A stretch of 64,000 nt of DNA from a phage: NCBI GenBank assembly GCA_024613925.1, contig GCA_024613925.1_4713.1, one strand, 5' to 3'. Under the pieces are notes generated by a model. The model was given only the letters and a program-made list of their open reading frames with translations. It searched no databases and was not told the origin of the DNA. This document shows, piece by piece, positions 7,539 through 47,900 of the stretch. Each line of letters starts with the position of its first letter. Position 1 is the stretch's first letter. The translations under genes were made by a program, and so were the position numbers.

Positions 7539-10532
7539 ATGAGCGTAACCAACAAAGATCTTGCTGAACAGCTCAATCGCTATATGCTTTCACCTATTGA
7601 AATGCAGGCTGTTGCAAGCGATATGATTCGTTTGGCCTCTGATGGCGAGTTAACCCTGGTTGACCCCAGCTGTCCGTTTGTTTATCTGCTGGAGGTTGCA
7701 ACAGCAACGGCGGCGAACCAGAACGCACGAGATGAGTCCCGTGTTCGCGAACTGTATCCGAAGCTTGCAACCAACTGGAGCCAGCTCTATCGTTGGATGT
7801 ATGACGAGTCGTACGTCGGACGTTTCGCAATGCCGGGTAAAACGGAAATCATTTATTCGTTAGGGTATCAGGAAATCCTCGACCGGGCTGTAGAGATTCC
7901 CAACACCATCGCCTCCGATGATTTAAGCCGTTCTTACAGCCGTAAGTTAGTGATACCACGTACGACGGCGTTTACGGTAGCCGGAATGGATTTCGGGTTG
8001 CATTATCCCATCGAAATCCAAGTACAGGCGCACGATCAGATACGCGTTGTTTATAACACCGATAACATCAGCCCGTTGCAAACCTTGGAGAGTAACCAAG
8101 TTGAGTACGGGGTTGTTCGCGTAAAAGCGGGTAAAGTGTTGGTGATGCGTATCCCGCTGTTCCAGTTTAAAACGCTGGTAAAAGATGTGCCGTTTAACAG
8201 CGTTCACGGGATGAACAGCAGCATTACCTTCGAAGATCAGTTTTACCATTGTCGTGCGTACATGTCGTCGGACAACGATACCTGGACGGAGATAGCGACA
8301 ACACACAGCCAGCAGATCTACGATCCGTTAACACCAACCATCGCGTTACAAGTAGAAGGGAACAAACTGAACTGGCGTGTTCCTGAAATTTATTTGTCTC
8401 AAGGTACGATGGATAAAAGCACCATTCGACTTGAGGTGTTGACGACGAAAGGGAAAATCAGCGTCGACCCGTCTGATTACGACGTGACCGATTGGAAAGA
8501 TAACTACATCGATTTGTCGCCAAAAGCCGAACAGAAATACAGTGCGCCGCTAAGTGCGTTCAATATTAAAGGGATTTATAGTGAAGGGGCATTGTCGGGT
8601 GGACGATCTGCGTTAACGTTCGAGGAACAACGTGAACGCGTTATGGCGGGCGTGAACAAAACCAAGGTGCCGATCACAGGAACGCAGGTAGAGCTGGTGC
8701 TTCAAGATGCGGGTTATGGGATGGTGACCACCATCGATAACGTAACCAATCGTTCGTTCCTGGCAACCCGAGATTTACCGCAATTGAGCGACAGCGTGCC
8801 GCAAGCCGGTTCGTTGATGGGGTCTTTCTATACGTCAGCCGCAGCATTGGTGAAAAGTAAGTTTGTCGCTGATAACGGCGATCGTATTACGATTAAACCG
8901 GATTGCTTGTATCGTGACAGTAACGGAAGTATCGCGCTGTTGTCGGACGATGAAATTGACCGTATTAATGCAGGCAACTCCGATGCGAAGTTGAACGCGG
9001 TAAACAACACCATGTTGTTTTACAGTCCGTTTCATTACGTATTAGACGCAACAAGCGATTTCGACATCCATGCTTATTACCTGGATGCCCCTAAGATCGG
9101 CACACAAGCATTCCTCGACGCGAACGAGACAATCCCGTTAACCGCTATGGTGACCGGATACCGTCTGGATCGTATCGCTGAAGGATATCGTCTAAGCCTC
9201 ATTGTAGAAGGTAACGACGCATGGAAGGCGCTCGACGATAAAAACGTGCACATCCAGCTGGGGTTCAATCCGCGGGGTGAGGGCGATTATGCGACGATGT
9301 TGGCGTCACCGACAACCGATGAACAAGGTCGTCGTTTGTTCACCTTCGATATCACCACGAATTATGATTTTACGCGGATCCTGGCCGATGATTCCACGGC
9401 GTATGAACCGTATATCGCACTGACTTCGTTCTCGATGTATGAATCAACACCGCGGGATTATTGGGCATCACTGCAGCAGTATTTGGAAATCTTCCATGTG
9501 GTGACGGATTACGCACCGGAAGATGTCGACGGTATTTTACACAGTGCTTCCGATAATTACCTGGTTAAGAAACTTACGCTTCAAAATGGGTATTGTTTCT
9601 ACCGTGAACGTCTCACCGCAACCTTTGGTTATGATCTGGATGGCCTTTGGATGCGTTCTCGTACGGTGGCCTCGGAGATCACGTATAAACGTTACACCGA
9701 GAACATCCCGTGGGTGTATGACGAAGACATTCCAGCGACGGATGAGACCGGTTCGGTTATCATCGAGCAAGGTGATGATGGTACGTTGTCGGTTAAATAT
9801 CTGCATCGTAAAGGTGACCCGAAATTAAACAGTGATGGAAGCCAAGCCTATCGTTATCTGAAAGGCGACATCATGAAAGATAATTACGGTAATCCGATCC
9901 CTGTCGATGAACGTGAGGTTCTGCGTAACCTGGACATGTTCTTTATCGATGCGTCGTATCTGCTCGCGAACGATACGGACGTGATTGACTATCGTAACAC
10001 GATTCCTACACAGCTTATTGAGTGGATTCAGAACGATATCAGCACGTTCAGGAATTTCTGTTATGAGGAAACAGCGATTTCACTGTATCCTAAGCAATCG
10101 CTGGGGTATGTGGATGTTATTGTGGAAAACGGATTGGAAACAACGCTTCCTGCTGCCTTATCGTTCAACGTGACGCTTTACTTACCGGCTAAGCAATACG
10201 CAGACTTGGATCTACGTCAAGTCCTTCAAGCGATGGTATCGAAAGTCATCAATGAATGTTTAACATCCCGTACGGTGGCTAAAGCAGAAATGATCGCGAT
10301 GATTCGTGAAGAGGGTGGTGACGACATCCTGAACGTTGAAATCGATGATTTTGGACCAGGTAAGAACCTCAGTGTTTATACCGCGAAGAACGATGGTGTT
10401 CGTTGTGCGGTGAAGAAAGAGCTTTATGTGAAAGCGGATGGTATCTTGTCCGTACGCGAAGCGATTGATGTGAATTTTGTGAAACACGCACAAAGCAACA
10501 GTTCAGCGCTAGCGCAAGGCCTTCGTGTCTAA
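7539..10532 (+). CDS. Large hypothetical protein (997 aa)
   Basis: Long ORF, GAGGGA ribosome-binding site, immediately follows 6330..7535. Confidence 0.6.
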   Translation: MSVTNKDLAEQLNRYMLSPIEMQAVASDMIRLASDGELTLVDPSCPFVYLLEVATATAANQNARDESRVRELYPKLATNWSQLYRWMYDESYVGRFAMPGKTEIIYSLGYQEILDRAVEIPNTIASDDLSRSYSRKLVIPRTTAFTVAGMDFGLHYPIEIQVQAHDQIRVVYNTDNISPLQTLESNQVEYGVVRVKAGKVLVMRIPLFQFKTLVKDVPFNSVHGMNSSITFEDQFYHCRAYMSSDNDTWTEIATTHSQQIYDPLTPTIALQVEGNKLNWRVPEIYLSQGTMDKSTIRLEVLTTKGKISVDPSDYDVTDWKDNYIDLSPKAEQKYSAPLSAFNIKGIYSEGALSGGRSALTFEEQRERVMAGVNKTKVPITGTQVELVLQDAGYGMVTTIDNVTNRSFLATRDLPQLSDSVPQAGSLMGSFYTSAAALVKSKFVADNGDRITIKPDCLYRDSNGSIALLSDDEIDRINAGNSDAKLNAVNNTMLFYSPFHYVLDATSDFDIHAYYLDAPKIGTQAFLDANETIPLTAMVTGYRLDRIAEGYRLSLIVEGNDAWKALDDKNVHIQLGFNPRGEGDYATMLASPTTDEQGRRLFTFDITTNYDFTRILADDSTAYEPYIALTSFSMYESTPRDYWASLQQYLEIFHVVTDYAPEDVDGILHSASDNYLVKKLTLQNGYCFYRERLTATFGYDLDGLWMRSRTVASEITYKRYTENIPWVYDEDIPATDETGSVIIEQGDDGTLSVKYLHRKGDPKLNSDGSQAYRYLKGDIMKDNYGNPIPVDEREVLRNLDMFFIDASYLLANDTDVIDYRNTIPTQLIEWIQNDISTFRNFCYEETAISLYPKQSLGYVDVIVENGLETTLPAALSFNVTLYLPAKQYADLDLRQVLQAMVSKVINECLTSRTVAKAEMIAMIREEGGDDILNVEIDDFGPGKNLSVYTAKNDGVRCAVKKELYVKADGILSVREAIDVNFVKHAQSNSSALAQGLRV

Positions 10533-32729: not shown

Positions 32730-33089
32730 TTGCTGTTAGCGCGTAAAGGCGACGGCGGCATGAAACTGAACATCGAAATGGGTATTGCGTACGATACCAT
32801 GTTTGGTTTGTACGACCGCGTTAACGAATGGACACCGTTGAAATGGGTGGCTCAGCATCCCGCTGAAGATCCCTGGGACAGATTAGGGATTAAACCCTTA
32901 ATCGAGGATTATGTTCGATTCGGTATTAAAGAGTTCATGACGCTGGATGCGTTTTTAAAAGCACCGTATCCTTACGCGCAAACGGTACTCAAAATCGCAC
33001 AAGACGAACTGCGGAAACGTAGTGCGGTACTGGACGACGATGAGGACAAGTTACGACGAGAAGAAGAACGTTTACGAAACGGAAAATAA
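32730..33089 (+). CDS. Downstream ORF, either a frameshift extension of 30982..32667 or a separate small gene
   Basis: Track start is TTG with no convincing ribosome-binding site; frame is open upstream to 32556. Confidence 0.35.
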   Translation: MLLARKGDGGMKLNIEMGIAYDTMFGLYDRVNEWTPLKWVAQHPAEDPWDRLGIKPLIEDYVRFGIKEFMTLDAFLKAPYPYAQTVLKIAQDELRKRSAVLDDDEDKLRREEERLRNGK

Positions 33090-33090
33090 A

Positions 33091-33600
33091 ATGGCGAGAT
33101 TTACCAGTTTGATTGGGTTGGATATTTGGGAAACACCGGCTGACGTTCGGGTTATTCCTGTCAACACCGTCGGTGTGATGGGACGCGGTCTTGCCAAGCA
33201 GGCGGCCGATCGTGTACCCGGTCTTCTTGAAGCGTACCGTAAGCAATGTCAAGATGGGTTTAAGGTGGGCGAAGTCGTGTCATATCAGCATGGCGAGAAC
33301 GATCAGCTCACCTACGTGTTGTTTCCATCAAAATCGGATTGGCGCGAAAAAACACGACGTGAGTATATCGTTAATGGTTTACTGGCGTTAAAAGCGTGGT
33401 TATTGGAGCTTCAGTTCGAAAGAGACGGCTTCTCATACCACCGTCCGGCTGAACCGTTGATTGTCGCAATTCCTCCGGTTGGTTCTGGTTGCGGTAATAT
33501 CGGTTACGGACAATCCGAAACAATCCAGCCTCAATGGGTACGCGCACAAATCAAACAGTATCTTGCCACCGTGCCAAACGTTCATTTCTACTTGTTCTAA
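33091..33600 (+). CDS. Macro-domain protein (ADP-ribose binding or processing)
   Basis: VIPVNTVGVMGRGLAKQ matches the N-terminal glycine-rich macro-domain motif; start moved to ATG at 33091 (MARFTSL) one nt after the upstream stop. Confidence 0.65.
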   Translation: MARFTSLIGLDIWETPADVRVIPVNTVGVMGRGLAKQAADRVPGLLEAYRKQCQDGFKVGEVVSYQHGENDQLTYVLFPSKSDWREKTRREYIVNGLLALKAWLLELQFERDGFSYHRPAEPLIVAIPPVGSGCGNIGYGQSETIQPQWVRAQIKQYLATVPNVHFYLF

Positions 33601-34049: not shown

Positions 34050-34619
34050 TCAACGATTCTTCATCACTTTACCCAGGCTTTCGATATTATCCCAAAAGCG
34101 ATTTTTACTTGGCGCATCGCCAACGATAACCGACATCAAATCGCGACGTTCACGACTGATGATGCCCTGTGATTTCCAGATCACCATCGTCCAGCAAGCT
34201 GCCAGAACGAACAGATGGTTAATGCTCGGTTTGGTTTGCGCGATGAACGCAAGCCATGCCCAGATACCGGTATATACTAGCGTCACTAAAAAGAGGGAGA
34301 TTGTCGCAATGACAACAACGAAGTTTTGGACAGCGGGTTGATTCGCGTTATCATGAATAGCGGTAAGATCGGGAAGGTTACCTTCAACTGAACTCGTTTC
34401 ATCGATTTCCAATTCTTCGATTTCTTTTCGTGTGTCGGGAGCTAATCCGGCATCATCAAGATGCTTTTTTAACCGCTGTATACTTAATCGTTGACCGACA
34501 GGAATGTTGATGTTGTCGTAACTATTAAGCGCATCAACCAGGGAGCGCCCGTCAACGAGAACCAAGCTCGCAGTACCCATTGTCTGCGGTTTTATTTTGT
34601 AAAGGTCTTTTACTTTCAT
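34050..34619 (-). CDS. Putative membrane protein
   Basis: 189-aa ORF with hydrophobic segments (FVVVIATISLFLVTLVYTGIWAWLAFIA, LFVLAACWTMVIW). Confidence 0.5.
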   Translation of the reverse strand: MKVKDLYKIKPQTMGTASLVLVDGRSLVDALNSYDNINIPVGQRLSIQRLKKHLDDAGLAPDTRKEIEELEIDETSSVEGNLPDLTAIHDNANQPAVQNFVVVIATISLFLVTLVYTGIWAWLAFIAQTKPSINHLFVLAACWTMVIWKSQGIISRERRDLMSVIVGDAPSKNRFWDNIESLGKVMKNR

Positions 34620-37917: not shown

Positions 37918-38055
37918 GGTCTTGTCCTATACGTTGGTGGTTGAAATGGCGGATATCGGATGCATGCTGGACGTGAACCCTATAATTCGCGCTATCGCCA
38001 TTTTCTACCTCGTTTCTATTCTCAAAAAGGAAATTTCATACGATGACGCCATAGC

Positions 38056-38090
38056 AGCTCCTCCTTCCCTGACGGGTTGGAGGAGCATAC
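38056..38090 (-). terminator. GC-rich hairpin downstream of the lipoprotein gene
   Basis: GCTCCTCC ttccctgacgggtt GGAGGAGC with CATAGCA flank. Confidence 0.35.
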
Positions 38091-38094
38091 TTAA

Positions 38095-38601
38095 TTACTT
38101 ACTGATAACCTCAACGGAATCCGGGTCGGCGATCAGCGCACGATCGGTAGAACAATTGAAGAAGACCATACCAACACCATCACCGTTCGAGTTCAGGGTT
38201 GAACTTGCGTAAGACAGGGTTGGTTTATTCATGCGGTAGAAGCGTTCGCTGGTTGTGGTATTGAACCCCAGATCAACGTAGTCTTTCACCGTGGTGTACA
38301 ACTGTGTGGACTCGAAAACGGTTACCGGAGAGTCAACGGTAAACTGACTGCCTTCATCCACAACCAGAACTTTATCGTTCCAGATTTCAGTGGTTGAGAA
38401 CTTCGGTTTCCAATGTTCGAATTCCTGGGTTGCACCCCAGCAAGAATACACAGCGAGATTGCTGTTCTTCTCGACAGGTTTCAACCCCACCAGTTGTGTC
38501 AGGTCTTTATCCAGGTTCGGTAAACCTTCCAGCGTAGCACACCCACCCAGAGAAAGCACCATCAACATACCAAGAACGATCGTGCAAAGTTTCTTCATCA
38601 T
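38095..38601 (-). CDS. Putative lipoprotein (superinfection-exclusion candidate)
   Basis: N-terminus MMKKLCTIVLGMLMVLSLGGCAT: signal peptide with lipobox-like LGGC; sits between fibre genes. Confidence 0.55.
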   Translation of the reverse strand: MMKKLCTIVLGMLMVLSLGGCATLEGLPNLDKDLTQLVGLKPVEKNSNLAVYSCWGATQEFEHWKPKFSTTEIWNDKVLVVDEGSQFTVDSPVTVFESTQLYTTVKDYVDLGFNTTTSERFYRMNKPTLSYASSTLNSNGDGVGMVFFNCSTDRALIADPDSVEVISK

Positions 38602-38641
38602 CGGATTTCCTTATGTGTAACGGGAGTGATCTCCATAGTAA

Positions 38642-39226
38642 TTACACAGTTGTAGGAAATTCCGGCCAATCGATATTTGGTGCTGTTGATGTGTCAACGC
38701 GATGCAGAGCCACCCGATACTTTTTCCATGCCGTCAACATGGACACCTCTTCTTCCGTTGCGATCTCCAGATCCACAGCATCCTGAAGTGGCGTAATATG
38801 ATCATTCGCCGCCTTCATCAGACTGTTTTTTGTTTCTTCCGCCTCCCGGATCCGGAACAGTTTTTCTGCTTCCGTATCCTTCACCCAGGCTGTGCCGTCC
38901 CACTTCTGAAACTCCCCTTCCGGCGATAACCAGGTAACATTTTCCGGTAACGGACCGAGTTCAGAAATAAATAACGCGTCGCCGGAAGCCACGTCATAAA
39001 CCGTTTTACCCCGATGATCTTCAACGAGATGCCACGATTCATTTTCATTGTTAAAAACTGCCACAAAACCAGCAGGAATTTCCGGTGGGGCGATATCTGT
39101 AGAATTAGCTGGCAGACCTGTATGAGGCGGAATATATGCATCACCTTCACCAATAAATTCATTAGTTCCGGCCAGCAGATTATAAATTTTTATGGTCCGT
39201 GGTTGTTCACTCATTCTGAATGCCAT
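38642..39226 (-). CDS. tfa: Tail fibre assembly protein (lambda Tfa family)
   Basis: [39 protein letters not shown]... matches the lambda/E. coli prophage Tfa chaperone as recalled from memory; directly follows the fibre gene with start/stop overlap. Confidence 0.85.
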
Positions 39227-43127: not shown

Positions 43128-44882
43128 TTATGCTGCTACGTATCCCGGCCAACGTTCTCTTGGCCAGTTTGTTGCGCCCTGCCCAACGTTGTCCTTACCA
43201 GAAATTACATTACTTACGTCCCAACCGCTAAGGTCTTGGTTAAATGCGGTGTTATCGCGCATCATGAGATCGATCTCACGTAGTGACTGGGTATTCCAGC
43301 CGGAAATGTCTTGGTTAAATGCTTTATTGGAGGCAAACATGTTAGTCACGTTCTGTAATTTTGATGTGTTCCAACCACCGATATCACTATTGAACGACGT
43401 GTCCGAGAACATGCCTGCGGCGTTAATGAGGCTGTCTGTTTTCCAGTTAATCAGCTTGTCACCATCGAGCGCCCTGCAACCACCGAACATAAAACTCATA
43501 TCGTTAACTTTGGATACATTCCATTTATCTAACCCGTTACCAACGAACGCGTAACAAGACTGGAACATCCAGCTCATATCGGTAACCCGACTCACATTCC
43601 ATTTACTGAAGTCGAGGTTAAGTTTCTGACACCCTAAGAAGGTTTCACACATACTGGTGATACGACTAACATCCCACTCTTGGATGTTGGGGTCGTTAAG
43701 CGTCGTTAAATAGTTGAACAATTTGTCTAACGACGTCCATTTCTCTGGGATACGGTTTGGTACTGTATGAAGCGATGAAAGGTTATTGGTTGATGGAGAG
43801 CGGAACATGCCGTTATCCCAATTTACGATCTCCGTAATTTCGTACCCTCTGATCGTCTGAGTAGCGTAACCATCTTTCACCGTACCTGTAGCGACGATGG
43901 TATATTCACCAGTGTCCGCATAATCGTGGACGTAGGCATTGTTGCTGGCGGTCTCCGTCGTCTTAGTCCCATCACCCCAATCGATATTGACGTTATCCCA
44001 CCCACCTAGTTTGAACTGTACTTTGCCTCCGGTGGCTTTTAGGATGTATTTACCCCCATTGTCTGTATAATAACAGACAACCATTGGACCGTACAGATTA
44101 CCTATCTGCCAATCATCCTTTTGCGTTATTGCGATTTGCGCCGCACCACGCTGTACGAAGAGTACCGTACGATTCTCGGCAGTCTGTAATGTGGTTATTG
44201 CCTGAGCCTTATCGTCCTCGCTAATTTCACCAGACACCACTAAAGCGCTTAACATCCTTTCGAAGTATTCGATCGGTAACTCAGCTCCAACAGACTTATC
44301 AACAGACTGTACAGCAAGATCACCCAATGCTGCAGTGGTAGCCAATGCCAATGAACCCTTGGTCATATCTGTTTCTTGGATGTAATGCAGTCCCGTAAGC
44401 TGGTACGCTTGAATAATAGTAATCAGGTTCAGCGTATCGTTAACGACCTGTACTTGTAAATACCCGGACCACACATAGCTGTCTTCGGCAATTAGTAGAT
44501 CGACTGACTGAATACCTGATGTTTCAAAGGTGATCTTCTCATTAAGATCGGTTTCCAGGAAATCAACCGCGAGGTCGAAATTAATGCCGTACTTTTCAGC
44601 GATGGAATCTACGATATTTCTTAAAGTAACATCTGTGCTTACGATAAAACGTAACGGAATTCCTGTAAACGCTTTAGCAATGTCTCGACGAACATACGTA
44701 AGCGATTGTTCGAAGAAATACGGGCTGTTATCTCCAGGCTTGATGGTTACCTGGCACACTTCAGGATATTCGGCTGGGATGAACGATTCGAATTTAACAT
44801 CGGATTCTTTCAACGAAAGATTGTTATTCCGGTTCACTAACGCCAGAAGATCGGCTTTCCATCCGGGGTAAACTGTAGACAT
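43128..44882 (-). CDS. Tail fibre with N-terminal anchor domain and C-terminal DUF285/BspA-like repeats
   Basis: Start moved to ATG at 44882 (MSTVYPGWKADL, GGAG upstream); C-terminal repeats WDVSRITSMCETF / WNVSRVTDMSWMF / WNVSKVNDMSFMF / WNTSKLQNVTNMF / WNTQSLREIDLMM / WDVSNV. Confidence 0.65.
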   Translation of the reverse strand: MSTVYPGWKADLLALVNRNNNLSLKESDVKFESFIPAEYPEVCQVTIKPGDNSPYFFEQSLTYVRRDIAKAFTGIPLRFIVSTDVTLRNIVDSIAEKYGINFDLAVDFLETDLNEKITFETSGIQSVDLLIAEDSYVWSGYLQVQVVNDTLNLITIIQAYQLTGLHYIQETDMTKGSLALATTAALGDLAVQSVDKSVGAELPIEYFERMLSALVVSGEISEDDKAQAITTLQTAENRTVLFVQRGAAQIAITQKDDWQIGNLYGPMVVCYYTDNGGKYILKATGGKVQFKLGGWDNVNIDWGDGTKTTETASNNAYVHDYADTGEYTIVATGTVKDGYATQTIRGYEITEIVNWDNGMFRSPSTNNLSSLHTVPNRIPEKWTSLDKLFNYLTTLNDPNIQEWDVSRITSMCETFLGCQKLNLDFSKWNVSRVTDMSWMFQSCYAFVGNGLDKWNVSKVNDMSFMFGGCRALDGDKLINWKTDSLINAAGMFSDTSFNSDIGGWNTSKLQNVTNMFASNKAFNQDISGWNTQSLREIDLMMRDNTAFNQDLSGWDVSNVISGKDNVGQGATNWPRERWPGYVAA

Positions 44883-44922
44883 AAGCACTCCAAAGTTCAT
44901 GGGGCGGTAACCGCCCCGTTGG

Positions 44923-47900
44923 TTAAATTGTTGGTTTAATATCGCGTAATAGGGCAATATAATAGCCTAATCCTCGGAGGATCTCTCCACTCCAGAAACC
45001 AAAATACATTCCGTCTCTGCCGAGATTAGCGCTATCTGGTGCAGGACTCCACCCACCATTCATTACGTCATCAACGGTGTAGCGGTTGATGTAGTTCTCA
45101 ACGATTTCGTTATACGCATTAACCGCAACAGAATAGCCTTTATCGTTGGGATGTCCGTACAACATTGCTAACGACGCACCCGCCAACCATAATCCTGCCA
45201 TATGACCAGTAAAATCATTAGGGATAAAAGCAGGGGGTTTATCCATCGGAAAATCCGTAGGAGATTGATAAGCGTTTTCCTGTTGATACGTAAACAAGAA
45301 ATCGATCCAATGGCTGATGTAAGTGGTTAACTTCTCAGGGACGGCTAAACCACGATCGAGCAGTCCAGCATAAAGCCTCACCGCTGAGAAGAAAGCCCTC
45401 GGCTGATAACCAGACCATGCCGTCTGATCGCCGAAGTGGTACATCGTAAAATCATTAACTTTTGATCCGCTTGGCGCATCCCAACGATCCCACACGTACG
45501 CACTTGCCCCTGGCCCTAAAACCCCGAATTTCTGATAATACCACTGCTGCGAGTCATACCAGAAATTCACAACATTCTGAATCATGAGGTCACGTCGTTC
45601 AGCCGATACGTCCATATCCAGGAAGACCCATGGATGTTGGTAGCCGGGATAAGGCTGACCACGCCAACTGTCGAACGTCGGTGCGTTAGGGACATAGTTG
45701 TTCGAGAACGGAATAATACCCGGAGTATAAGGCAATGGATCCAGACGTTGGTTGACAATCGTACAATCGCCAACACGCAGTGTGCCCTCCGCCTCAAAGG
45801 TTGCTTTTAACGTAAACAGCATGGTATATCCGTCATCCGTGGTGTAAGTTGACGGTGGATTGTTGATGGCGTAAAGCTTAAATACCCCTTCAGCGATATC
45901 GCCGTCGTCAGGCAAGAACAGAATTTCAGTTGAACCATCGCCCCACACAGGTGCAGAAGGTTTAGGGTCAGTATCAGCGTGGCCCGGTTGATACCCTGAG
46001 AGCGTCCATCCGTTCGCCGAAAGCGTCAATGTATTTCTTGCTGTGGTGGCCGGTAGCATATACCACCATCGCCAGCCGTTTGTATCTTCTACACGAACGT
46101 TGTAGTCAATCGACGCGAAATAACTGACCTGCCTTACGATCTGTTTTGCGGTCGGATTGAATTCAAATTGCCCGCCTGCCGCAGTAAGCTGCGCTTTTAG
46201 GAACAACCCATCCCAGGAATCTTCCACCGCTTCGCTGAATTCTGTTGTGATGGCGACATCATCTTTCCAGCCGACTTTATCAGCCGATATCAACACAGAA
46301 CCTGTAACAGCATCGCCGGTTGGCGTTGAAGCTTCATCAACCGCATCAGCAGGAATCAACGAGCCTATTTTGAAATCCCATTCTTTCGGCTCGGCACTGG
46401 AAGGTAACACCAGCTTGTACGTTTTGGCTTTCGCTTCGGTTTTGTCCAAAGAAAGCGATAATGAGATCTCAACCGGAATTGCAATACCCGCTGTATCTTT
46501 ACCACCGCAGGTTACACGAAGAATTGAATCACGATTGACGCGGAACGGAATAGCCTGCTGTTCAAGGTAAATTTGTGCTGAGGATGCTTGAATCACGATC
46601 CAGCCGTCAGTATCACGTGTAATTGTGAACGGTGCTTTCGATGGATAGGTATACGTGTAAGCGATACCGTCGGTGTCGTAACGATCGGTTCCTTTTACCT
46701 GACGGAAGAACTTATCGTTGGCGTCGATACGAGTATATTCTTCAATCGTAAACAACGATGCCTTGTACGCTTTCTGATAGCGCTCCTGCTGCGTTAAACT
46801 GTATAAGGTGTAGGCTGCTTCACAAAACCACTGTTCAGCGTCTGACGCGTTTCCCATGTAGTCTCTGGTGACCGGCACCTGGATCGGTCGGTTATGCTGA
46901 CACTCGTTCGTTTTGATGAGGTATCCGCCATATTCAACAGGAACGCGGGGTGCCCACGCAACCAAATAAGAACCGCTGACGGACTTATCTTTGAGTACGA
47001 TGGTGCCCACCTCATCGTCAGTACACGCTTCAAGATCGTCCCCGCCCACACTTACGTATCGTTTTGTGCGTAACGCAACTTTCTCGATAGGGAACACCGT
47101 ACCCTTTGTATCCCAGTCAATCGTCCCATCATCATTGGTTTTGAACACATCGGCGTTCAAATTCTGCCAGCCGAGTTTACCCTCATAGACCTGAACAACA
47201 AGATCCATGTATTCCCCGAACGTTGGTGCCCCATGTGTTATTTTCCCGATACCGTTGGTGAATGTAACCGCGGTGTCATGGAAACCGCCATGTGTCGGGT
47301 AATCGTTTTTTGCAAGAGGATAATGGGCCAACACCGGCTGTTTACCATTAACAATCCAGTTAGCGATCCAGCGTGCCGGTGTATCCGGTGGTTCAAGACC
47401 CGCATAGAACGCTTTTATATACGCATCGAACGATGCCTCCGCTAATGTGAGATAGTGCGCTTTAAGCTTGGTATCATCCGTTGTATGACTGAATATACCC
47501 GCACCCAGAATTAACAACGACTGTCCTTCTGTTGTTGCGTCACCATCCGGTTGTGCTTCTTGTCGTGTTGCTGCAATGAAATGACGGTTGTTTACCATGA
47601 CCCCGCTTTCATTTAACACGTAATGATCGGTTTCTGGATCGGTAAACGTTCCTGTGTTTCGGGTTAAGAATCTTGCATGGCCATAACCAACGAAATTAAC
47701 CGGCGACGCTGTAATCATCCATTTACCGATAAGTTGAGCAACATCATTATAACGCTCGGATGCGGTGATTTGTTTCACGTACCAGTCTTTACGGTTAAAT
47801 GTCCAAAGCAGGAAGTAATAAGTTGTATCGATTTCCATCACTGGGAACGTCGGCGTTAACGGCTCCAGCATTAAGTAGTTGCTCCAGTCAATCTGTCCGC

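Follow-up and report, generated by a model that had tools for sequence, protein, structure and literature searches.

Lipoproteins that block entry at the outer membrane have a precedent in TraT (surface exclusion), and among phages the closest described systems are Llp of T5 and Cor of phi80, N15, HK022 and T1. The llp gene adjoins the receptor-binding gene in T5-like phages and cor adjoins the tail-fibre region in phi80, N15 and HK022; the receptor-masking lipoproteins described to date are of small size and vary together with the receptor-binding protein. To our knowledge, protective phage outer-membrane lipoproteins (Llp, Cor) are known only as small, receptor-specific factors. Here the comparison was extended to a gene lying among receptor-binding genes in a 64,000-nucleotide (nt) stretch of phage DNA (GenBank assembly GCA_024613925.1, contig GCA_024613925.1_4713.1; hereafter the window). 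In its DNA the region is ~95% identical to vB_EcoM_Goslar, a nucleus-forming jumbo phage of Escherichia with a 237-kb genome, and the ortholog of the encoded protein is Goslar gp88 (HOV27_gp088, YP_009820773.1), with 97.6% amino acid (aa) identity, the same position and the same flanks. An earlier annotation of the window (the first-pass annotation) had read the product as a lipoprotein and a superinfection-exclusion candidate that would mask the receptor of the adjacent fibre. The present analysis agrees with the first of these readings and points to an accessory factor that probably acts on the envelope instead of masking the fibre receptor in the manner of T5 Llp.

A predicted lipoprotein and its family

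The open reading frame (ORF) of 168 aa given by the first-pass annotation at 38095-38601 was confirmed and lies on the minus strand, which that annotation had left unstated. Its translation (38601→38095) begins MMKKLCTIVLGMLMVLSLGGC|ATLEG. The lipoprotein signal was assessed with PROSITE rule PS51257, which asks for a Lys or Arg among residues 1-7, a hydrophobic core free of charges and a lipobox Cys at position 15-35, the lipobox pattern being [LIVMFWSTAG]2-[LIVMFYSTAGCQ]-[AGS]-C. The window protein follows this rule with K3/K4, an uncharged core and L-G-G-C ending in Cys21, in line with the signal peptide and lipobox-like LGGC noted in the first-pass annotation, and such a signal is found in no other ORF when all six frames of the 64 kb are read down to a length of 40 aa. 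A PS51257-type rule was satisfied in 22 of 24 family members, the two exceptions being one partial or degenerate copy and one member with a very short n-region. The residue at +2 was A, S, K, T, V or Q across the family and never D. In comparison with a phage designated L007, whose lipoprotein is 86% identical, the signal peptide showed a non-synonymous divergence (dN) of 0.46, so that its sequence diverges fast and its character is retained, as is typical of signal peptides. Because the signal and lipobox were kept in 22 of 24 homologs whose mature parts share just 25-35% identity, and because the gene is under strong purifying selection, they are not a chance occurrence. The gene very likely encodes a bacterial-type lipoprotein precursor, its lipoprotein nature and export being predicted from sequence, and an outer-membrane location of the predicted lipoprotein is likely. 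In P0031, a partial contig of Proteus mirabilis (471 nt), AISS replaces the lipobox Cys and there are many substitutions nearby; this is either a degenerate copy or poor-quality sequence.

The window protein matched phrog_9559, a PHROG of unknown function, at E 7.5e-22, and all 24 collected members matched the same PHROG (best 6e-85). All occurrences of the family were in jumbo phages of enterobacteria. With HMMER, an exhaustive search through 1.84 billion cluster representatives returned 13 matches, about nine of them real. Among 5.8 billion proteins, a profile search returned 30 matches, each on a jumbo-phage-sized contig, and tblastn placed the gene in 55 records of jumbo phages from Erwinia, Salmonella, Escherichia and Proteus, with SPN3US and the Machinavirus group among them. 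The long HMMER matches (P0006, P0011, P0013 and P0015) were rejected as homologs, being leucine-rich repeat (LRR) or other repeat proteins aligned to the hydrophobic signal region. The ratio of non-synonymous to synonymous divergence (dN/dS) was 0.055 vs Goslar and 0.09 vs L007, and on these sequence comparisons the gene is under strong purifying selection and belongs to the backbone of the nucleus-forming jumbo phages of enterobacteria. Neither the 5,426 complete E. coli genomes searched nor the PLSDB plasmids contained a match, which rules out a prophage or moron origin and identifies the gene as one of lytic phages. Searches of Pfam, NCBIfam, PADLOC and PDB sequences (the last at E<=10) likewise gave no match. 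The gene is already catalogued, as Goslar gp88, in phrog_9559 and under the UniProt label 'Lipoprotein' for the homologs of Erwinia phages Kwan, Huxley and Asesino, its functional role being only putative. The label DUF2846 in the GenBank record of pEa_SNUABM_43 was not reproduced, as no member gave a Pfam DUF2846 match at E<=10. In the published papers on SPN3US and Erwinia phages that were examined, the homolog goes unmentioned.

A usable AlphaFold model was obtained from the 24-sequence alignment (a 4-sequence alignment gave a predicted local distance difference test score, pLDDT, of 32). The model consists of a signal helix, a tether of ~20 residues and an all-beta barrel of ~115 residues with a core pLDDT of ~90. 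The tether is absent or ~8 residues shorter in the SPN3US/Erwinia clade. Within the barrel, C54, C150, G84, R120, Y122, S134, G140 and G142 are invariant across the family, and C21 is also invariant in the alignment alongside C54 and C150. The closest structures, none of them a confident relative, were small 8-stranded barrels, many being bacterial outer-membrane or periplasmic lipoproteins, with NHBA, TbpB, fHbp, PhiA, ACP and YceI among those named; Foldseek against the PDB returned nothing significant. The neisserial lipoprotein barrels (NHBA C-domain, TbpB/LbpB and fHbp), each a lipid-anchored 8-stranded barrel on a flexible tether, may share this overall build.

Relation to the fibre genes and to known exclusion factors

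The gene lies between the tfa gene (PF02413), which is upstream, and the gp087-like and gp086-like genes downstream, as the first-pass annotation had described in placing it between Tfa and a further fibre-cluster gene. The gene order in Goslar is DUF7941 (gp091), fibre (gp090), Tfa (gp089), lipoprotein, gp087 and gp086 (DUF7941), and in L007 it is DUF7941, fibre, DUF4376, lipoprotein and a 255-aa protein. In a more distant relative, L006, the lipoprotein gene (49% aa identity) lies between genes for 604- and 572-aa DUF7941 proteins, and Stf/Tfa is entirely absent. SPN3US and the Erwinia phages have a solo lipoprotein gene on the opposite strand, adjoining DUF7941 (gp160) and DUF4376 (gp161), with a GH108 endolysin 2-3 genes away. 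Placement beside DUF7941, DUF4376 and fibre genes is kept in Goslar, L007, L006, SPN3US and ChrisDB.

Upstream of the lipoprotein gene, the segment 38664-40984 (fibre residues >485 plus tfa) is a fibre cassette exchanged relative to Goslar. One of its joints follows fibre residue ~485, and the other is within the last ~13 codons of tfa, among those that encode the conserved Tfa C-terminus NIDWPEFP. Goslar similarity resumes sharply at 38683, some 80 bp ahead of the start of the lipoprotein gene. The distal fibre and Tfa share ~89% nt identity with lambda-type Stf/Tfa, the Goslar fibre is P1 S-like and the window Tfa shares 34% aa identity with Goslar gp089; the jumbo phage has borrowed a lambdoid receptor-binding module. 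The fibre tips and Tfa are unrelated between the window phage and Goslar while the lipoproteins are nearly identical. The same pattern was found against L007, in which every neighbour of the lipoprotein is less conserved (37-70% vs 86%), and against L006 the lipoprotein evolves at about the backbone rate. Since the gene is not part of the exchangeable fibre/Tfa cassette, lying just beyond it, and its conservation exceeds that of its neighbours, a mask matched to the fibre receptor is disfavoured. The receptor-masking proposal of the first-pass annotation thus finds no support in these comparisons, and it is further weakened by the spread of the family over Escherichia, Salmonella, Erwinia and Proteus phages.

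The window protein resembles T5 Llp in being a lytic-phage lipoprotein with a conserved Cys pair, encoded beside receptor-recognition genes, and the benefits attributed to Llp (exclusion, and the shielding of progeny from receptor-bearing debris) offer the best functional analogy. It differs from Llp in size, the mature protein having ~147 aa vs ~60 for Llp, and in showing no co-variation with a cognate receptor-binding protein. No Llp homology was found, phrog_9559 being the sole match at E<=0.01 and the PDB sequence search giving nothing at E<=10. Cor, too, is a small phage protein that is exported, acts in outer-membrane exclusion and has its gene next to tail-fibre genes; however, it is an FhuA-tied moron of temperate or T1-like phages, whereas the window gene is a backbone gene of strictly lytic jumbo phages. 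The window protein gave no match to the Cor family (phrog_1119), and the single match among the 24 members (E 0.0082) is attributable to the signal peptide. The lack of similarity to Llp and Cor stated in the first-pass annotation therefore held in the Pfam, PHROGs, NCBIfam, PADLOC and PDB sequence searches. The gene resembles Llp and Cor in logic and lacks every testable membership feature of both families.

Proposed role and competing explanations

In E. coli, lipoproteins are exported by Sec, modified by Lgt/LspA/Lnt at the lipobox Cys and sorted by Lol according to the '+2 rule'. By analogy with this pathway, the window protein would be exported during infection, triacylated at Cys21 and, having Ala at +2, sorted to the inner leaflet of the outer membrane, where a disulfide-stapled barrel (C54-C150) would be displayed in the periplasm. 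There it would alter the envelope of the infected cell to the benefit of the phage, by blocking further phage entry (superinfection exclusion at or after adsorption) or by sparing progeny from being wasted on envelope debris. The retention of the gene whatever the fibres would suggest that it targets a conserved step at the envelope or in phage entry. Such a target would be conserved among Enterobacterales or among these phages, as opposed to the variable receptor of the neighbouring fibre, and could be an abundant outer-membrane or periplasmic component or the penetration machinery of the incoming tail. An envelope-modifying lipoprotein acting on a conserved target is, tentatively, the best explanation overall, and an exclusion or progeny-protection role of gp88-type lipoproteins is putative, possible by analogy and held a little more loosely. 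If this is true, a larger barrel-type lipoprotein has been kept as a backbone gene across the jumbo phages of several enterobacterial genera, and its conserved target would provide a handle on how nucleus-forming jumbo phages cross the envelope.

A mass spectrometry (MS) data set bears directly on this proposal. Goslar virions purified with polyethylene glycol (PEG) and CsCl were analyzed by cryo-electron microscopy (cryo-EM) and label-free quantification MS (LFQ-MS) in a 2026 preprint (bioRxiv 10.64898/2026.04.21.720040). Goslar gp88 was detected there by 20 peptides covering 78% of the protein and was quantified at ~737 copies per virion (range 491-1158), which made it the fourth most abundant protein outside the atomic model; it was listed as 'lacking a clearly predicted function', and the word 'lipoprotein' is absent from the text (bioRxiv 10.64898/2026.04.21.720040). 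The same sample contained chimallin (~126 copy-equivalents), PhuZ (~170), exoribonuclease (~59) and thymidylate synthase (~20), and the authors say that the method captured non-virion assemblies too (bioRxiv 10.64898/2026.04.21.720040). Closer examination of the listed peptides starting A-D in Goslar Table S4 gave OmpA peptide areas of at least 1.21×10^6 vs 0.93×10^6 for gp088. By the calibration of the preprint itself, this corresponds to at least ~300 OmpA copy-equivalents per Goslar virion from the A-D peptides alone. The prominence of host OmpA in the sample indicates that outer membrane co-purifies with Goslar virions, and the abundant gp88 would, under the proposed role, represent co-purified outer-membrane material. 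The products of the neighbouring genes were present at ~43 (fibre), ~52 (Tfa), ~19 (gp087) and ~4.5 (gp086) copies, so that gp88 is not stoichiometric with them; gp085 was present at ~4.6 copy-equivalents. The SPN3US homolog, gp159, is absent from an 86-protein virion proteome and from mutant-particle proteomes, in which the gene lists run 155, 158, 160, and the adjacent DUF7941 protein gp160 was present at >300 copies in a preparation where known non-virion proteins went undetected (PMC5694885).

The peptide data were also considered with regard to processing, LCAIILGMLMVLSLGGCATLEGLPNLDK being the uncleaved N-terminal peptide and CATLEGLPNLDK the peptide expected in the lipidated form. The mature N-terminal peptide (C)ATLEGLPNLDK is missing where it would sort among the listed A-D peptides, which fits, without proving, a lipidated Cys. 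The coverage of 130/167 residues fits the loss of the signal and the N-terminal peptide, or the loss of another 31-mer. The first-pass annotation had named detection as a virion component as evidence against its proposal, and in a formal sense the ~737 copies of the Goslar ortholog are such a detection; they are confounded by OmpA and by non-virion phage proteins in the same sample, and the SPN3US homolog is absent from virions.

Several observations weigh against an envelope factor carried over with membrane. At up to 2.4 times OmpA, itself among the most abundant proteins of the outer membrane, and 17 times the fibre, gp88 stands far above the 20-170 copy-equivalents of the non-virion background, so that plain membrane carry-over needs either very high expression or true enrichment on the particle. 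The protein is also neither small nor co-varying, unlike the known receptor-masking lipoproteins, and the fold search yields no specific functional relative. Finally, the timing of expression finds no support in promoter motifs. A TATG element lies upstream of the lipoprotein gene in all lineages, TATG being the core of phiKZ late promoters (PMC4666361). Upstream of the window genes, TATG occurs 12 times vs 12.2 expected and CTATGG is likewise not enriched, so that expression timing cannot be inferred from TATG.

The alternative that fares best, although unlikely, is a true virion-associated protein present at several hundred copies on the particle, for example on the peripheral baseplate or in the DUF7941 'fibre cloud'. 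It could reach the particle after lysis, as a mature lipoprotein that may or may not bring a membrane patch along, or in an unprocessed form from the cytoplasm that attaches via its hydrophobic N-terminus. The copy number above background is similar to that of the DUF7941 filament protein gp22 (~580), the gene is inside the DUF7941 cluster in all lineages, and the peripheral baseplate and fibres, which are not resolved in the cryo-EM maps, leave room for unassigned proteins. Against this, gp88 is missing from the atomic model, which has 28 proteins, and from the set of proteins examined as green fluorescent protein (GFP) fusions. Moreover, the conserved Sec/lipobox signal and the invariant Cys pair mark an extracytoplasmic protein, yet virions assemble in the cytoplasm. 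The presence of OmpA and of phage nucleus proteins in the Goslar sample, the disparity between gp88 and its neighbours in copy number, and the absence of gp159 from the cleaner CsCl virions and mutant particles of SPN3US, with gp160 being abundant there, all argue in the same direction.

A more specific form of this alternative, which is quite improbable, is that virions truly carry several hundred lipid-anchored copies, picked up from the envelope during or following lysis, or attached to the DUF7941 cloud or peripheral baseplate, and use them at entry. A lipid-bounded early-infection (EPI) vesicle is characteristic of chimalliviruses, and at the next infection a virion-borne lipoprotein could, for example, insert into or prime the host membrane during tail penetration and EPI vesicle formation. 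If true, this would give a tailed phage particle a lipoprotein component with a role in entry and not in exclusion. A predicted exported lipoprotein is among the four most abundant unassigned 'virion-associated' proteins of Goslar, and either the virion proteome is substantially contaminated with outer membrane or a tailed phage bears a high-copy lipoprotein; contamination would affect the interpretation of other high-copy unmodelled Goslar virion proteins.

The envelope-modifying lipoprotein proposed here also has to be weighed against other functions in the periplasm. One is inhibition of a peptidoglycan hydrolase, with an architecture like that of MliC/PliC, Brucella PhiA or Neisseria ACP and a function like that of T4 Spackle, by which a superinfecting tail lysin would be neutralised or the phage's own muralytic enzymes restrained until lysis. 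Weak fold resemblance and the lysin genes nearby in the SPN3US clade are consistent with such an inhibitor. No sequence signal accompanies them, a Pfam search at E<=10 on the 24 members and a PDB profile search giving no MliC-type domain, and this function is distinctly unlikely. Quite improbable as well is a ligand-binding lipoprotein, lipocalin- or YceI-like, that would sequester or carry lipid, isoprenoid or muropeptide in a role unrelated to exclusion.

A strict Llp/Cor-type mask of the specific outer-membrane receptor of the adjacent fibre is very improbable. The lipoprotein gene is directly downstream of the fibre and Tfa genes, a gene order that parallels the placement of llp and cor, and Llp, too, has a conserved Cys pair. 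These likenesses are set against the exchange of fibre tip and Tfa upstream of a lipoprotein that hardly changed, the different receptor-binding genes that L007 and L006 carry around theirs, homologs in phages of four host genera, and the size and sequence differences from Llp and Cor. A lysis protein, as an o-spanin subunit or a unimolecular spanin (u-spanin), was ruled out on size, fold and context and has a negligible likelihood: o-spanins are outer-membrane lipoproteins, an endolysin is nearby in the SPN3US clade and a few members gave marginal matches to Rz-like spanin PHROGs and Pfam Lysis_col (E 0.005-0.15), but these occurred in 1-3 of 24 members, as expected from shared lipoprotein signal peptides, the mature protein is a ~115-residue folded barrel where an o-spanin would be short and rich in proline, no i-spanin gene is embedded in the gene or adjoins it (Tfa and a 213-aa soluble protein are encoded on either side), no lysin lies near the gene in Goslar-type phages, and the missing C-terminal transmembrane segment excludes a u-spanin.

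Transcription signals and neighbouring genes

The features of the locus are collected in Table 1.

Table 1. Positions of the lipoprotein gene, its parts, its expression signals and its neighbours in the window.
Feature	Coordinates	Strand	Remarks
Lipoprotein coding sequence	38095..38601	minus	ortholog of Goslar gp88 / HOV27_gp088; 168 aa or 167 aa
Signal peptide, residues 1-20	38542..38601	minus	K3/K4 n-region, hydrophobic core; predicted helix 4-17
Lipobox L18-G19-G20-C21	38539..38550	minus	Cys21 is the predicted lipid-modified mature N-terminus; +2 is Ala
Flexible tether, residues 22-40	38482..38538	minus	low pLDDT, 46-63
All-beta barrel domain, residues 41-155	38137..38481	minus	invariant C54, C150 (putative disulfide)
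Shine-Dalgarno AAGGA	38608..38612	minus	read from sequence; 6 nt before ATG 1, 9 nt before ATG 2
Strong RNA hairpin	38053..38091	minus	starts 4 nt past the stop codon; dG -25.4 kcal/mol, z -6.7
Mosaic joint	38664..38683		below: ~95% Goslar; above: lambda Stf/Tfa-like
Tfa tail-fibre assembly chaperone, lambda-like	38642..39226	minus	PF02413, E 8.8e-43; upstream of the lipoprotein gene
Tail fibre, 1070 aa	39226..42438	minus	N-terminal 485 aa Goslar gp090-like (88.7%); rest lambda Stf-like tip
gp087-like protein, 213 aa	37276..37917	minus	downstream neighbour; no Pfam/PHROG/NCBIfam match
gp086-like protein, 870 aa	34641..37253	minus	DUF7941 + NCTSP TIM-barrel host-recognition filament protein

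A second ATG at 38598 gives a protein of 167 aa, the signal peptide being unchanged with either start. Goslar has ACG at the position of the first ATG of the window, and for this reason the second may be the true start. The Shine-Dalgarno sequence is unchanged in Goslar and L007. The hairpin behind the stop codon is a candidate for the 3' end of a transcription unit or for an mRNA-stabilising element. Hairpins of differing sequence were found at the matching spot in L007, L006, SPN3US, ChrisDB and SNUABM43, and across all lineages the post-stop hairpins had ΔG values of −19 to −31 kcal/mol and z of −4.5 to −6.8. The occurrence of such a hairpin in every lineage indicates that the lipoprotein gene ends a transcription unit. 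A sigma-70 scan gave fewer sites than shuffled sequences and none at the lipoprotein gene.

Directly past the hairpin, at 38029-38055 on the minus strand, lies the element GCTATGGCGTCATCGTATGAAATTTCC, which is identical in Goslar and nearly so in L007 although synonymous sites between the window and L007 are near saturation (synonymous divergence, dS, ~0.9). This element is a candidate regulatory or promoter element of the gp087-like gene. In L006, near-identical units at 7925-7960 and 8513-8550 bracket the lipoprotein gene on both sides, each consisting of a GC-rich hairpin followed by (C/T)TATGC..TGTATTTTATG, so that the L006 gene looks like a stand-alone unit delimited by terminator and promoter.

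Among the neighbours, Goslar gp086 has been described previously (bioRxiv 10.64898/2026.04.21.720040). The gp087-like protein is the most variable of the cluster, with 97% identity to Goslar and 37% to its 255-aa counterpart in L007, and is a candidate specificity determinant or adhesin. Further upstream, a 609-aa DUF7941 + DUF285 gene at 43128-44957 on the minus strand, between the gp091-like and gp092-like genes, has no Goslar counterpart at that place (~37% to other DUF7941 proteins) and is 70% identical to an L007 gene; with TTG called as its start, it shares 35 nt with the end of the 1198-aa ORF that precedes it. It is an extra host-recognition filament gene. At the other end of the cluster, the gene at 34050-34619 on the minus strand encodes a 189-aa gp085-like protein with a soluble N-terminal part of ~105 residues followed by hydrophobic, transmembrane-like segments (…FVVVIATISLFLVTLVYTGIWAWLAFIA… LFVLAACWTMVIW…). 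This protein has no family match. A 45% conserved counterpart closes the same cluster in L006, and the cluster could thus encode a second protein that acts on the envelope. Just past the end of the host-recognition cluster, an ORF at 33022-33600 on the plus strand, opposite to the cluster, stands at the position that the macro-domain protein gp083 has in Goslar; in Goslar, a terminator is annotated between gp083 and gp084.

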